From: a virus | Taxonomy: Duplodnaviria; Heunggongvirae; Uroviricota; Caudoviricetes | Length of the DNA: 24,685 nt | Virus record (IMG/VR): IMGVR_UViG_3300037257_000073 | Reading direction: 5' to 3' (one strand) | In this document: positions 486 through 6,648 of the stretch, piece after piece | Position numbering within the stretch: the first letter of the stretch is position 1 | Layout: every line of letters begins with the position of its first letter | Translations under genes and position numbers: made by a program | Notes under the pieces: model-generated | Seen by the model: only the letters and a program-made list of their open reading frames with translations | Database searches by the model: none | What the model was told of the DNA's origin: nothing

Positions 486-736
486 AAGAAGATCTAACAG
501 CAGAGGTTAGACTATATGAACTAACAGATGATATACTAGATAAAATATATAATATTGATTGTATACTTTCTAAAGTTAGATCAGAAATGACAAGACTATC
601 AGAAGCAAGTCTTATTGATTTAGACTTATCTACAAAAGATGTAAACAAACTATATAAATTTAAACAAGTAACAGATAGTTTATATGCAGCACTCCAAGAA
701 CTTCGAGGAGAAATAGAAGAATTTAATAATGAATAA
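473..736 (+). CDS. Hypothetical helical/coiled-coil protein (87 aa)
   Basis: Track ORF with heptad-like Leu pattern and coupled overlaps. Confidence 0.65.
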   Translation: MALIKEDLTAEVRLYELTDDILDKIYNIDCILSKVRSEMTRLSEASLIDLDLSTKDVNKLYKFKQVTDSLYAALQELRGEIEEFNNE

Positions 737-1166
737 TAAATATTATACACCAAAAGTAGAAGAATTTCATGTAGGATTTGAATACGAAGAATTTATAAAT
801 TTTGATATGTTACTTATTAGATCAATAGATCATGAAGATGATATTATATGGATTAAAACACATCTTGATGTAAATATGACTTTTGAATTTATGGAGATTC
901 CATTTAAAATAATGAGAGATTGTATAAGAGTTAAATACTTAGATAAAGAAGATATAGAAGATTTAGGGTTTAAATTTCATGAACATTTATACGGAGCATC
1001 TCAATATTTTTATAAAGATATAAAATTACATGATAGAGGATTTGGATTAAGTATATATTCATCTAAACATATAATAGATGCATCACAAGATGAATGTTTA
1101 TTTAATGGACTAATTAAAAATAAATCGGAACTAAAAGTATTACTTAAACAATTAAATATTTCTTAA
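729..1166 (+). CDS. Conserved phage hypothetical protein (145 aa)
   Basis: Track ORF. The YYTPxxEEFHVGFEYE and IRVKYLDKEDIE motifs resemble a family of Bacteroidota-phage hypothetical proteins (from memory). Confidence 0.7.
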   Translation: MNNKYYTPKVEEFHVGFEYEEFINFDMLLIRSIDHEDDIIWIKTHLDVNMTFEFMEIPFKIMRDCIRVKYLDKEDIEDLGFKFHEHLYGASQYFYKDIKLHDRGFGLSIYSSKHIIDASQDECLFNGLIKNKSELKVLLKQLNIS

Positions 1167-2105: not shown

Positions 2106-2164
2106 ATACTGCTAATTTTCAATAATATTTATATTATAGATTTTTATTGAATTTTTAGCAGTAT
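2106..2164. repeat. Imperfect inverted repeat overlapping the promoter
   Basis: Left arm ATACTGCTAATTTTCAATAA (2106-2125); right arm TTATTGAATTTTTAGCAGTAT (2144-2164). Confidence 0.6.
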
Positions 2165-2169
2165 CTTTG
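2162..2169 (+). promoter_or_regulatory. Bacteroidota-type sigma70 -7 promoter element
   Basis: TATCTTTG matches TAnnTTTG in an intergenic gap, about 25 nt before ATG 2194. No clear -33 element. Confidence 0.6.
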
Positions 2170-2193
2170 TAGTATAGAAAATGAGAATGATAT

Positions 2194-2622
2194 ATGGAAG
2201 AAATACTAAAGAAATTTAATTACAAACCCACAGAAGAAAATACTTGGGTTAAAGGTGAATGGACTGTTAGATTTGATGATGAACTCGTCGAAGTTTTTAA
2301 CGATCCTAATAAAAGTGCAGGCGAATATTATAGTTCACCAATTGCAACAGTAGATTTAGAATTAATATTAATGGAAGTTGATAGGAAAAATCGCTGACCA
2401 ATCGTTACTATGGTTACTGATATGATTACCGATGTAAATGCAGAATCAGAAAATGCAACTGGAAATACTTATATAATGTTTACTCCTCATAGAGTATGGT
2501 TAAAAGATTGGTTAAGGTTATGGGGTCAAGAAGAAAATGGAAGTTATTCTATTACAGGTAACAATATCTTTGTTGTTGATTCAACACTAAGTAAAGTAAT
2601 AGATATTACAAAACTAATATAA
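2194..2622 (+). CDS. Hypothetical protein (142 aa with TGA=Trp; track fragments 67 + 70 aa)
   Basis: Track ORFs 2194..2397 and 2410..2622 are in the same frame, separated only by TGA 2395-2397 plus four sense codons. Two separate genes cannot be excluded. Confidence 0.55.
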
Positions 2623-2651
2623 AAGTTAGAGGTTCTTTAAAACCTCATCAT

Positions 2652-2724
2652 ACCTTTGTAGTGTAATGGTTAGCACACAAATCTTCAAAATTTGTAAGTG
2701 TGAGTTCGAGTCTTACCAAGGGTG
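2652..2724 (+). tRNA. Opal-suppressor tRNA-Trp, anticodon TCA
   Basis: Full cloverleaf: acceptor ACCTTTG/CAAGGGT; D arm GTGT-AATGGTTA-GCAC; anticodon arm CAAAT-CTTCAAA-ATTTG (TCA at 2685-2687); 5-nt variable loop; T arm GTGAG-TTCGAGT-CTTAC; discriminator G. A1-U72 and G73 fit tRNA-Trp identity. No encoded CCA. Confidence 0.93.
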
Positions 2725-2742
2725 CAAAATGATAGAATAAAT

Positions 2743-3309
2743 ATGAATAGAACAAGTAAAGAAGAATTAGAAAAACTAATATTAATAGATAAGTTATCAT
2801 ATGCTGAAATAGCAAGAACATTTGGTGTATCTGATGTTACTATTAGAACCTGGGCAATTAAACTAGGGATAAATATTCCTAGCCGAAAAAAAATATTGGA
2901 AAATAAGATATGTTTAAATTGTAATAATGAATTTAAACCATCTGGAACTACAAATAAATATTGTAGTCAACAATGTTCAAATGAACATAAAATAATTTTA
3001 AATTATGAAAAATATAAATTAGATAATTCCATACTTTATGGACAATCTAATATGTCAAATTATAAAAAACATTTTTTAAAAGAACAAGATTATAAATGTA
3101 CAATTTGTGGAAATCCGAATACTTGGAATGATAAAGAATTGGTATTTGTTTTAGATCACATTGATGGTAATGCTGATAATAATGAACGTAGCAATTTAAG
3201 GTGTATATGTCCTAATTGCGATAGTCAACTTGATACATTTAAATCTAAAAATAAAAATAGTGCTAGAGCAAAATACAGACAAACTTTAAAGGTGGAGGAA
3301 TGTGTATAA
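2743..3309 (+). CDS. HNH endonuclease with N-terminal HTH and Zn-binding motifs (probable free-standing homing endonuclease)
   Basis: N-terminal HTH (LSYAEIARTFGVSDVTIRTW), CxxC motifs, and C-terminal CTICG...LDHIDGNADNNERSNLRCICPNCDSQ. The track GTG start at 2722 overlaps the tRNA, so ATG 2743 is preferred. Confidence 0.85.
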   Translation: MNRTSKEELEKLILIDKLSYAEIARTFGVSDVTIRTWAIKLGINIPSRKKILENKICLNCNNEFKPSGTTNKYCSQQCSNEHKIILNYEKYKLDNSILYGQSNMSNYKKHFLKEQDYKCTICGNPNTWNDKELVFVLDHIDGNADNNERSNLRCICPNCDSQLDTFKSKNKNSARAKYRQTLKVEECV

Positions 3310-3488
3310 TGACCGAACTAGAACAAAAAATAATAGAATTAAGAAAAGAAGGATTAAGTTATAGAAATATTCAAATAAAATTAGGTAATCCTTCTAAAAA
3401 ATTTATAAGAGAAACACTTTTACAATACACTCCGGATTTAGTTGGAGATATAGTAAAAAATTATAATAAACTAGAACCTAAATGGTAA
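3309..3488 (+). CDS. Small HTH DNA-binding protein (59 aa)
   Basis: TAATG stop/start coupling with the HNH gene; EQKIIELRKEGLSYRNIQIKLG is an HTH-like pattern. Confidence 0.65.
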   Translation: MTELEQKIIELRKEGLSYRNIQIKLGNPSKKFIRETLLQYTPDLVGDIVKNYNKLEPKW

Positions 3489-3564
3489 CTAAGAAATAGT
3501 GTAAGGTATATGACAACAGGGATTCTATATCCATTAAATGATAATCTCATATCAACCAAGCACC

Positions 3565-3595
3565 AAGCCCATTATCAAAAGTAGTGGGCTTTTTT
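3565..3595 (+). terminator. Rho-independent terminator
   Basis: AAGCCCATTAT-caaaa-GTAGTGGGCTT stem followed by a T run. Confidence 0.8.
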
Positions 3596-3656: not shown

Positions 3657-5921
3657 ATGAACGCAGGAAAGAAATTTTTGAGTGACTTAAAACTTCACTC
3701 TGACTACTTAAAGTGGAGACCAGAAGAAGGTCGATACGAAACATGGAATGAAGCATGTGAGTCTATAATCAATGGTCATAAAGATCATTATGCAGATGTA
3801 GACCTAAGTAAAGAATTAGAATACGCATTGAAATATATGCAATCTAAAACGGTACTAGCTTCACAACGAAATCTACAGTATAGAAATGAGCAGATCGAAC
3901 GTAACAATGCAAGACTTTATAATTGTTCATCTATGTATGCTGCTAGAAATAAAATATTCCAAGAAGTATTTTACTTAGCATTAAGTGGTTGTGGTGTAGG
4001 ATTAGGATTACTTATTCCTTTTGTGAATAACATTTCACAAGTAAATAAAAGAACTAAAGGGACTAAAACATTTATTGTTCCCGATTCAATTGAAGGATGG
4101 TCTGATGCATTTGGTGTATTGATGTCATCATTCTTCATTGATAAACAACCTTTTCCAGAGTATGCAGGATACGAAATTAAATTTGACTATTCAGAAGTAA
4201 GAGAAAAAGGTGCATTCATTAGTGGAGGATTCAAAGCTCCAGGACCTGATGGTTTAAAACAATCATTTGAAAAGATCGAAGAGTTCTTAAATAAATGGAT
4301 TACATCAGAAGGCACTAAACTAAGACCAATCGCTGTATGTGATATTCTATGTCACATCTCAGACGCAGTATTATCAGGTGGAGTTAGACGTTCTGCTCTT
4401 AACATGATTGTTGATCCAAATGATGATGAAATGATTAATGCTAAAGTTGGTAACTGGAGAACTAATAACCCACAACGTGGAAGAACAAATAATTCGGTGT
4501 TACTTCTTAGAAGTTTAACCGGAAAAGAAGAATTTGAAAAGCTTGTTAAAATGAATGATGGATATTCTGACATTGGTTTTGCATTTGCTAACTCATGGTT
4601 TGATATGTTCAATCCTTGTTTCGAAATTCTTAAACACCCAATTCTTCATTCAAAAATTAGTACAAAAATAAATGATGTATCTTATGATAAGATAGAAGAA
4701 TTTATTAGAGATAATGAAGACAAACTAGGTGTAGCATTCTGTAATCTTTGTGAGATTAATGCAGAACAATGTGATATAGTTGAGAATTTTTATTCTGCGT
4801 GTATTGCTGGTGCAATCATTGGAACACTACAAGCAGGTTATACATCATTTCCTTATCTTGGAGAAACCACTGAAAAGATTGTAAGACAAGAAGCTCTATT
4901 AGGAGTATCTGTTACAGGATGGATGAATAACCCAATGTTGTTTAACACCGACATTTTAAAACATGGTGCATCTTTAGTTAAAGAAACAAACAAGACAATA
5001 GCTGAAAAGATTGGAATTAATCAAGCTGCTAGAACGACATGTGTTAAACCATCGGGTAATGCATCTGTAGTATTGGGAACTGCGTCAGGTATTCATCCTG
5101 AACATTCTCAAAAGTATTTTAGAATCATGCAACTAAACAAAGAAAACGATACAGCCAAATGGTTGAACAAACATATGTCTTATCTTTTAGAAGAAAGTGT
5201 TTGGTCAAGTACTGGATCTGATTATGTTGTATTTGTTCCTATTGAGAATCCTATTGAGGGATTATATAAGAAAGACGTAAAAGGTGTTAAACATCTTGAA
5301 CTAATAAAACTAGTACAATTAAATTGGGTAAATGAGGGAACTAATCGCGATCTATGTGCATATCCTGATGTGAATCATAATACATCTAATACTGTTATTG
5401 TTGATGATCAAAAAGCTGTTATAGATTATATTTGGAATAACAAACATGACTTTACAGCAGTATCCTTTATATCTGATTACGGAGATAAAGATTTTACACA
5501 AGCTCCATTCACATCTGTATCTTCATTAGATCAACTAATGAGTGACTATGGAAAAGGTGCATTATTCGCATCTGGATTAATTGTTGATGGACTACATTAT
5601 TTTAACGACAATCTTTGGATTGCTTGTGATATGATTAAAGATAAATCAGTTCCTATTACTGGAACAAGAGAACAAGTAATGCTTAAGAAATATTGGTTGG
5701 CTAGAGCAAAGAAATTTGCTAACAACTTCTTTGGAGGAGATTTACAAAAGACTGTATATTGTTTAAAAGATGTACATCTATTTCATAAATGGGAAGTAAT
5801 TAATAGACAATTTAAACCAGTTGACTTTGGAGAGATTCTAAACAAGCCAACATATAAAGACATTAGTGACACAGCGGCCCAAGCTTGTAGCGGAGGTTCA
5901 TGTGAGATCACTAGATTATAA
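3657..5921 (+). CDS. nrdJ: Ribonucleotide reductase catalytic subunit, most like monomeric class II (RTPR/NrdJm)
   Basis: 754 aa with LYNCS, GGVRRSA, NPCFEI, CNLCEIN, TCVKPSG and C-terminal CSGGSCE motifs. No nrdB in the window. All 14 Trp codons are TGG. Confidence 0.8.
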   Translation: MNAGKKFLSDLKLHSDYLKWRPEEGRYETWNEACESIINGHKDHYADVDLSKELEYALKYMQSKTVLASQRNLQYRNEQIERNNARLYNCSSMYAARNKIFQEVFYLALSGCGVGLGLLIPFVNNISQVNKRTKGTKTFIVPDSIEGWSDAFGVLMSSFFIDKQPFPEYAGYEIKFDYSEVREKGAFISGGFKAPGPDGLKQSFEKIEEFLNKWITSEGTKLRPIAVCDILCHISDAVLSGGVRRSALNMIVDPNDDEMINAKVGNWRTNNPQRGRTNNSVLLLRSLTGKEEFEKLVKMNDGYSDIGFAFANSWFDMFNPCFEILKHPILHSKISTKINDVSYDKIEEFIRDNEDKLGVAFCNLCEINAEQCDIVENFYSACIAGAIIGTLQAGYTSFPYLGETTEKIVRQEALLGVSVTGWMNNPMLFNTDILKHGASLVKETNKTIAEKIGINQAARTTCVKPSGNASVVLGTASGIHPEHSQKYFRIMQLNKENDTAKWLNKHMSYLLEESVWSSTGSDYVVFVPIENPIEGLYKKDVKGVKHLELIKLVQLNWVNEGTNRDLCAYPDVNHNTSNTVIVDDQKAVIDYIWNNKHDFTAVSFISDYGDKDFTQAPFTSVSSLDQLMSDYGKGALFASGLIVDGLHYFNDNLWIACDMIKDKSVPITGTREQVMLKKYWLARAKKFANNFFGGDLQKTVYCLKDVHLFHKWEVINRQFKPVDFGEILNKPTYKDISDTAAQACSGGSCEITRL

Positions 5922-5937
5922 ACTTAACAAACAATTT

Positions 5938-6648
5938 ATGGGAAAAGGCACACGAGAAAAGCGTACTGAGAAACGCGAGAAAAACAGATTACCCGAAAAA
6001 CAATCTAACTTAGTAAATGATTTCAAACCAAAGAATGAGAAACAACAAGAGTTTATTAACCTTATAAATGATAGAGAGATTATCATTGCTACAGGTCCTG
6101 CTGGAACAGGTAAGACATATGTAACATTAGCAACAGCTTTATCATTATTAGGTTCAATCTATAAAAAGGTTATTCTTGTAAAGTCAGTAACTACTATTCC
6201 CGGAGAAGAAATAGGATTCCTTAAAGGTGGAATGGAACAGAAAATGGAACCATTTATAATGTCTTATATGTGAAATATTGATAAGATCTGCGGAGATAAA
6301 TCTGCACAGAACTTACTTGATAAAAAAATAATTGAAGTATTACCACTAGCTTTTATTAGAGGTTTATCAATTGATAATGCTATTGTAATAATCGATGAAG
6401 CACAAAACATAGATAATCATACTTTTAAAACAATGATGACTAGAATTGGAGAAAACTCAAAATACATTCTTCTTGGAGATAGTGAACAAATAGATAGACG
6501 TAAGAAAAGCGAATCGTGTTTAGCGAAAGTTATTGAGATATTTACTGATTCAGATATTATTGGATCAATAGAATTTAAAGATGAGGATTGTGTGAGAAAT
6601 CCAATCATTCCTATAATTTTATCTAAACTAAGAGAGAACGGAATCTAA
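5938..6648 (+). CDS. phoH: PhoH-family ATPase (236 aa, one in-frame TGA at 6271)
   Basis: Walker A GPAGTGKT, GEEIGFLKG, LAFIRG, Walker B IIDEAQN, TRIGENSK and LGDSEQID are all in one frame across TGA 6271-6273. Confidence 0.92.

Follow-up and report, generated by a model that had tools for sequence, protein, structure and literature searches.

We describe a compact group of elements at positions 2,106-3,595 of a 24,685-nt stretch of viral DNA (hereafter the window), which lies within a 64.8-kb viral contig from IMG/VR (IMGVR_UViG_3300037257_000073; 29% G+C, CheckV completeness 39%). It comprises a Bacteroidota-type promoter element, a 142-codon open reading frame (ORF) with one in-frame TGA, a tRNA with the anticodon UCA (tRNA(UCA)), an HNH endonuclease gene, a gene for a helix-turn-helix (HTH) protein and an intrinsic terminator. 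On balance we read this region as an opal-suppressor ("code-switch") transcription unit of one clade of large crAss-like phages. Within it the tRNA has a constant partner: throughout this clade, a gene for a small protein, corresponding to the N-terminal part of the ORF (the N-domain), lies directly before tRNA(UCA). An earlier note on the window, made from its sequence alone, had listed these parts, all of which are found, and had proposed that the ORF, full-length only once its TGA is suppressed, senses suppression or supplies a missing helper function. That interpretation stands in part: the unit exists and is conserved, with the N-terminal half of the ORF as its constant partner, while neither the gating by TGA nor a general need for the protein is borne out. 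Judged by its homologues, the ORF appears to be a lineage-specific in-frame join of the N-domain (codons 1-67) and a C-domain (approximately codons 73-142), and the TGA at codon 68 a local by-product of gene fusion in a recoded genome rather than a conserved sensor or switch.

About 30 distinct loci were sampled via four anchors (the N-domain protein, PhoH, RNR and the HTH gene); they come from protein-anchored IMG/VR searches, P0031, P0039, P0040 and P0065, four representatives chosen blind to their context, PhoH-anchored loci and HTH-anchored metagenome contigs. tRNA(UCA) follows every N-domain gene that has enough downstream sequence, at a distance of 4-363 nt (mostly less than 50 nt), and the linkage holds for N-domain genes down to ~30% identity. 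L124 and L128 look like exceptions but do contain the tRNA, which is interrupted by an intron. None of the sampled genomes yielded an N-domain gene apart from tRNA(UCA), so the expectation that homologues of the ORF co-occur with a suppressor tRNA is confirmed for its N-terminal half. The converse does not hold. A scan anchored on a long type of tRNA(UCA), described below, identified 49 loci with such a tRNA, and the N-domain gene was present in 6 of them, all on already known contigs. Among the 45 loci that could be tested, 39 have the long tRNA and at least 400 nt of upstream sequence without the protein, many of them in tRNA arrays of large phages. The N-domain protein thus implies tRNA(UCA), but the tRNA does not imply the protein, which is neither a general requirement for opal suppression nor an obligatory helper.

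Homologue searches likewise separate the two halves of the ORF. A profile (HMM) search of 1.84 billion representative proteins returned 58 clusters, and the sole full-length N+C cluster was the window's own. Approximately 47 clusters contain proteins of 62-100 aa (most of them 62-85 aa) that match profile positions 1-64, the N-domain; approximately 10 match positions 65-141, the C-domain, either alone in proteins of 77-97 aa or within larger proteins. The supposed single gene is therefore usually found as two. In locus L011 the halves flank the tRNA, with the N gene at 4311-4535 (ending TAA TAA) and the C gene at 4645-4842, and the tRNA occupies the spot equivalent to codon 68 of the window. 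Locus L094 has the order N gene, C gene, tRNA, again with the C-domain as a separate gene. Close homologues of the joined form do exist (141-142 aa, 66-76% identity), and codon 68 falls exactly at the junction: the window and L006 have TGA there, L001 and L007 TAT, and the truncated L008 GGA. The TGA is hence not conserved, although it had been proposed as the gate of this gene. Only two of the five close lineages have a stop codon at the position where a programmed read-through or stop-gated gene would keep one, and the ~20 more distant N-domain genes contain no TGA at all. Translated with table 11, the ORF gives proteins of 67 aa (2194-2397) and 70 aa (2410-2622); since the first matches the stand-alone length and an ATG follows at 2410, the TGA appears to mark the former end of the N gene. 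In L006 and L007, TGA stands in place of TGG at conserved Trp codons of the C-half (102/110 in L006, 105/109 in L007), which implies that in this lineage the frame is translated as one protein with TGA as Trp. ORFs of this kind are best annotated as N+C fusions. A natural 82-aa variant in L008 (16-264; also in L009) retains the N-domain and the tRNA but nothing of the C-domain, the deletion apparently falling between repeated ...MIT / ...DIT-KLI motifs. A weak match to the C-domain profile (E 1.9e-5) was also observed in P0050, a 657-aa protein with at least nine near-identical repeats of ~66 aa, which could be an artefact of the tandem repeats or stem from a wrong frame.

The N-domain gene itself is written in the standard code. 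Across 26 such genes Trp is encoded by TGG 50 times and never by TGA, which fits a gene whose translation has to precede effective suppression. TGA is likewise absent from the HTH and HNH genes, and the C-domain extension is the exception to this standard-code writing of the unit. An AlphaFold2 model of the N-domain, built from 56 sequences, predicts with confidence (predicted local distance difference test, pLDDT, 95.1) an alpha-beta5-alpha sandwich for this acidic protein. A double-stranded RNA-binding-domain or HicA-like fold had been considered but was abandoned, since the protein is acidic and the confident model shows five strands instead of three. The model of the whole 142-aa ORF (5 sequences) was unusable at pLDDT 43.8, and only the N-domain model was used for fold searches. 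Foldseek returned nothing at E<0.1 in the PDB, and searches of the PDB and BFVD gave no match above noise; the best VIA matches (Mediator Med17C, CyaY/frataxin, and AvrPphF ORF1 and SycT among type III secretion chaperones) have Z scores of 6.1-5.0, with the noise level of the tool at 7-8. Pfam, PHROGs, PDB sequence profiles and the ESM Atlas yielded no family for either the N-domain or the C-domain, and homologues of the N-domain and HTH proteins are absent from GenBank phages by tblastn.

The window comes from a crAss-like phage. Its HNH gene resembles counterparts in the gut crAss phages cr53_1 and cr116_1, and window positions 732-974 resemble the g104/GroEL (g105) region of Cellulophaga phage phi14:2. 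From position 5938 of the window onward, many broken frames are joined once TGA is read as Trp, and the contig downstream of this point has ~98 in-frame TGA versus 58 TGG codons (summed from the ORF table). Trp is the commonest residue aligned with in-frame TGA, at 62 of 116 informative sites in phages with a short tRNA(UCA) ("type I") and at 21 of 28 in those with a long one ("type II"). Between the window and L001, 11 Trp codons are TGA in both, and TGA and TGG are exchanged at 2+2. These alignments establish TGA as a Trp codon in these phages. As had been noted for the window, no release factor 2 (RF2) or tryptophanyl-tRNA synthetase (TrpRS) gene is apparent: neither prfB nor trpS has a match on the 64.8-kb contig (39% complete; prfA was not searched for).

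The window tRNA has the features expected of a Trp-inserting opal suppressor. It matches the full length of Rfam model RF00005 (positions 1-71) with 62.9 bits (E 1.8e-11; gathering threshold 29 bits), and has a 7-bp acceptor stem, a 5-bp T stem, a 4-bp D stem and no encoded CCA. It carries G73 and A1-U72, which are identity elements for bacterial TrpRS; G73 is present in all 14 tRNAs compared, and A1-U72 is not universal. ARAGORN labels it "tRNA-SeC". A selenocysteine tRNA is ruled out, as this would need an 8-bp acceptor stem, a 6-bp D stem and a long variable arm; the label derives solely from the anticodon, and "tRNA-SeC" calls in these phages should be annotated as opal suppressors.

At these loci tRNA(UCA) is either short (72-75 nt, the form found in the window) or long (92-100 nt), the long form having an extra arm. 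Eight long tRNAs (Table 1) fold as a cloverleaf, with compensatory changes in 20 of 26 pairs. Their extra arm consists of a 5-bp stem and a 7-nt loop, N-U-C-C-A-A-A, whose identity is 0.90, versus 0.49 outside the three 7-nt loops. TCCAAA always lies in such a loop in another 43 long tRNAs, which belong to other phages (among L139-L258), and 18 of the 43 have CUCCAAA; the pattern that found them demanded TCCAAA, not the stem. Long tRNAs with this arm are widespread in IMG/VR phages, often within tRNA arrays. Ser and Sec tRNAs are ruled out for the long form by its 7/5 shape and by the alignment of TGA with Trp at 21 of 28 sites. Because of the loop sequence and this alignment, the extra arm looks like a copy of the anticodon arm of tRNA-Trp (CCA). 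We tentatively suggest, by analogy with an engineered design discussed below, that such a pseudo-anticodon arm could aid Trp charging in cis, recruiting TrpRS while the UCA anticodon reads UGA. Corresponding help in trans for the short form, from the ~60-aa HTH protein or the N-domain protein, seems improbable. The two interchangeable forms of the cassette might then be solutions to one problem, the charging with Trp of a UCA tRNA by a host synthetase that reads the anticodon. Directly behind the long tRNA of L001 there is a second tRNA-like element (6253-6362) with a T arm, an acceptor stem and a 30-nt insert, which ARAGORN calls tRNA-Phe(aaa) with an intron, in intron mode only.

The tRNAs of L124 (1631-2310) and L128 (4067-4748) are split between positions 34 and 35 by an insert of ~600 nt that encodes an endonuclease-like ORF of ~160 aa; both tRNAs are missed by ARAGORN and Rfam. 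The insert is probably a group I intron; Rfam identified no intron at gathering score. Upstream of the cassette in L128, three copies of the Rfam DUF805b RNA motif are present on the minus strand (206-242, 905-940 and 1225-1260).

What follows the tRNA depends on its form. Copies of the 62-aa HTH gene with 55-75% identity are found behind every short tRNA, including the intron-bearing ones, and behind no long tRNA, so that this gene, as had been supposed, belongs to the conserved unit. More distant homologues (53-59%) occur without a tRNA; its family assignment comes from weak Pfam HTH matches and Atlas leads. The HNH gene was also listed as a member of the cassette and does not keep that place: it is missing from many short-form loci and absent in L001, L007, L098, L104 and L130, and L094, L122 and L125 have homologues with 59-67% identity at that site. 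It matches PHROG HNH families (E 7.6e-22, 2.5e-19 and 3.6e-17) and Pfam HNH_3 with 20.5 bits, which is under the cut-off of 24.8, and a DHIDGN...N...CPNC motif is visible. We take it to be an optional mobile insert, apparently of homing type, between the tRNA and the HTH gene. The tRNA is exchanged as well, its type switching at least three times on the PhoH tree: the window and L001 have different tRNA types although their PhoH proteins are 98% identical, and they share 68% identity in the ORF versus 95-98% in proteins of the downstream genes. Endonuclease activity at the site is the likely cause of these exchanges of tRNA and neighbouring sequence between close relatives.

The promoter element TATCTTTG conforms to TAnnTTTG, the Bacteroidota-type -7 element. 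In 16 of 26 loci the same motif is positioned 28-32 nt before the ATG of the homologous N-domain gene, and six further loci have it at other distances (-11/-12, -48, -56); in this tally L008 has just 15 nt of upstream sequence, and the motif of L001 was read directly. The window shows no enrichment of TAnnTTTG (34 occurrences versus 40.6 expected) and a generic sigma-70 scan did not flag the site, but its recurrent position before the ATG indicates that TATCTTTG is more than a chance match. The arrangement supports a unit bounded by hairpins that begins at a host-type promoter element.

From this layout we infer the following course of events. The promoter element would drive a short transcript that first encodes the small acidic alpha/beta N-domain protein, always in the standard code. 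The tRNA(UCA), a few bases later, would be excised by host RNases and charged by host TrpRS, turning TGA into a Trp codon, and in the short-tRNA form the transcript would go on to encode the ~60-aa HTH protein and end at the terminator. In the window phage, where the N-domain gene is joined in frame to the normally separate small C-domain gene, the product before the tRNA accumulates would be the canonical 67-aa protein and afterwards the 142-aa fusion, with a C-domain start at ATG 2410 also possible.

Several observations weigh against this scheme. Promoter use, co-transcription and timing are deduced from the arrangement of elements, and a -33 TTTG at the canonical spacing (~19-21 nt upstream) is not evident; there is just a TTG at 2147-2149, 12 nt upstream. 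The TGA in the ORF had been described as the only one before position 6271; this is true inside the window but is an edge effect, since a 123-aa ORF that ends at window base 8 (G000:C1:11156-11527) has five in-frame TGA and no TGG. All five are kept in L001. This ORF sits upstream of the cassette, which means that TGA-bearing genes are not restricted to the region after it and blurs a simple timing in which early genes use the standard code. The window ORF could equally be read as two separate genes. The search with the N-domain fold yields no function, its best score lying below noise. Finally, all 18 loci with both protein and tRNA form one clade of the PhoH tree (100/100 support), and the three outgroup loci have neither, so that the co-occurrence can rest on a single origin and inherited synteny.

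This last point is the core of an explanation that we rate as possible but do not favour: the N-domain protein would serve early host takeover or anti-defence, with no connection to decoding, and the tRNA would simply sit behind the strongest early host-type promoter. The single clade, the many long tRNAs without the protein, the place of the N-domain gene in L098, L101 and L104, where it comes first behind a divergent junction with lysis genes, and fold neighbours that are generic protein-binding modules at noise level all agree with it. What speaks for a closer tie is that the two have stayed adjacent even though the tRNA was replaced repeatedly, an intron and an HNH gene were inserted, and genes fused or split, and that no sampled genome has an N-domain gene elsewhere. 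The sensor model goes further in the other direction, with the ORF as a sensor of suppression, a positive-feedback element or a missing helper (an RF2 antagonist, or a factor for tRNA charging or processing) that is full-length and active only after read-through. Strict adjacency at every locus found, retention of the N-domain while the tRNA body was exchanged at least three times, its standard code (as in the "code change module" genes of Jade phages, below), an acidic protein with a predicted small, protein-binding-like fold, and the contig without an RF2 or TrpRS match would all suit such a role. We nevertheless consider this model unlikely: most homologues have no TGA and most lineages lack the gated C-half, the carriers are one clade, 39 of 45 testable long-tRNA loci in other phages do without the gene, and the N-domain resembles no translation factor, RNase or modification enzyme in sequence or fold searches. 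A function of the N-domain protein in translation or code switching seems possible but less likely than not, and any role assigned to it is inferred.

It is similarly improbable that the ORF is simply two ordinary genes, the TGA at 2395 ending a 67-aa protein, the ATG 13 nt past it starting a 70-aa C-domain protein, and no fusion of consequence. The first length is that of stand-alone orthologues, and the two are separate genes in L011 and L094. In all five close lineages, however, the frame stays open at this point; the codon is a sense codon in L001 and L007, which lack a start close by and can therefore make only the fusion; and in a contig that reads TGA as Trp ~98 times, read-through at codon 68 is to be expected once the tRNA is present. 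We therefore retain the suppressor transcription unit, with a lineage-specific fusion in the window, as the probable reading.

Organisms that use translation table 4, and classical Trp-inserting opal suppressors, have tRNAs with a UCA anticodon and G73 that read UGA as Trp. The window tRNA shares this anticodon and G73 but, unlike the table-4 tRNA-Trp(UCA), belongs to a virus whose host uses the standard code, and so has to compete with the RF2 of that host. Homing endonucleases of the free-standing HNH kind are well known, as are group I introns in tRNA anticodon loops, e.g. in cyanobacterial tRNA-Leu(UAA); the HNH gene beside the window tRNA and the ORF-bearing intron in the tRNAs of L124 and L128 resemble these. 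In TGA-recoded Jade phages, a "code change module" consists of a suppressor tRNA, TrpRS and RF1 (Borges et al., preprint 10.1101/2021.08.26.457843). The window unit is likewise compact, in standard code, and places an opal suppressor ahead of genes with in-frame TGA. It differs in having no trpS or prfB match on its contig, in its partners, a ~65-aa protein of no known family and the ~60-aa HTH protein, and in heading a block of replication genes rather than preceding a lysis cassette. The suppressor tRNAs described from crAss-like phages (Yutin et al. 2021, PMC7886860; Zeta group, PMC12386605) have the same general setting, with TGA read as Trp, a phage tRNA(UCA) and dense homing endonucleases and introns; the passages of these papers that were searched do not describe a conserved protein partner, a fixed promoter-protein-tRNA order or two interchangeable tRNA forms.

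The extra arm of the long tRNA has a counterpart in engineered tRNAs, in which a pseudo-anticodon arm in the variable arm helps recruit the synthetase (Mukai 2020, PMC7590224), and in the literature searched this design turned up only as an engineered device. The long tRNA(UCA) resembles it in its variable arm, a 5-bp stem and a 7-nt loop with the cognate anticodon CCA. Those constructs are synthetic, of His type, and needed an added anticodon-binding domain, whereas the arm here is natural and apparently of Trp type; the short tRNA of the window itself lacks such an arm. How suppressor tRNAs are charged and outcompete host release factors is an open question in the papers on recoded phages, because synthetase and release-factor genes are rare in these genomes. 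A second Trp-anticodon-like arm, if it is a true charging aid, would explain charging without a phage enzyme. The unit defined here, with its promoter element, ~65-aa protein, tRNA(UCA) and ~60-aa HTH protein, is compact, bounded and repeatedly exchanged, and could be cloned whole.

Table 1 Coordinates of the candidate suppressor unit in the window, and of long tRNA(UCA) genes in other loci
Feature	Position	Strand	Description
Inverted repeat	2106..2165	.	between upstream gene (stop 2088) and cassette
Promoter element TATCTTTG (TAnnTTTG, Bacteroidota-type -7)	2162..2169	+	32 nt 5' of ATG 2194
ORF	2194..2622	+	142 aa if TGA is Trp; one in-frame TGA at 2395-2397 (codon 68)
N-domain coding part	2194..2397	+	67 codons, ends in TGA 2395-2397; length like stand-alone orthologues (62-85 aa)
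Linker and C-domain	2398..2622	+	in frame with N-domain; also separate 70-aa ORF from ATG 2410
Hairpin GAGGTTCTTTAAAACCTC	2629..2646	+	7-bp stem, just 5' of tRNA, no T-run on + strand
Putative opal-suppressor tRNA(UCA)	2652..2724	+	73 nt, short variable loop ("type I"); ARAGORN, Rfam
Free-standing HNH endonuclease gene, N-terminal HTH	2743..3309	+	PHROG HNH families
62-aa HTH gene	3300..3488	+	conserved member of type-I cassette form
Conserved non-coding stretch (AATAGTGTAAGGTATATGACAACAGGGATT...)	3489..3564	+	runs into terminator, just upstream of RNR-like gene
Intrinsic terminator	3565..3591	+	11-bp stem (4 G-C pairs), 5-nt loop, then TTTTTT
Long tRNA(UCA)	L001:6158-6249		
Long tRNA(UCA)	L007:985-1082		
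Long tRNA(UCA)	L008:295-387		
Long tRNA(UCA)	L010:3564-3655		
Long tRNA(UCA)	L011:4540-4634		
Long tRNA(UCA)	L090:1555-1653		
Long tRNA(UCA)	L093:4221-4315		
Long tRNA(UCA)	L097:4260-4354		

The arms of the inverted repeat (2106-2115 and 2155-2164) are 10 nt long and 100% complementary, or ~20 nt if one indel is allowed, and the promoter element begins within the right arm. L001 has an unchanged copy of the repeat, but in L006 and L007 a terminator-like hairpin (AAAGTCTGACTAATAATCAGACTTTT) takes its place, which argues for an operon boundary rather than a conserved operator. The hairpin before the tRNA is kept in this position in L001, L006, L007 and L008, regardless of the kind of tRNA, and may be a processing signal or a 3'-end protector.

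At the other end of the unit, the non-coding stretch before the terminator has no Rfam family at gathering score; L001 (6364-6435) and L007 (1088-1116) carry almost the same sequence, and in L010 and L011 it can still be recognised. Hairpins are present at the terminator position in L001, L010 and L011 as well, with different stem sequences. Among the neighbouring genes, the five-TGA ORF at the upstream edge of the window has a Q-x-x-G-x-G-like motif that may point to an acetyltransferase. The RNR-like gene that follows the unit (754 aa, window 3657-5921) has 14 TGG codons and no TGA, and adjoining genes use TGA; its copy in L010 has TGA at three of the 14 Trp codons.

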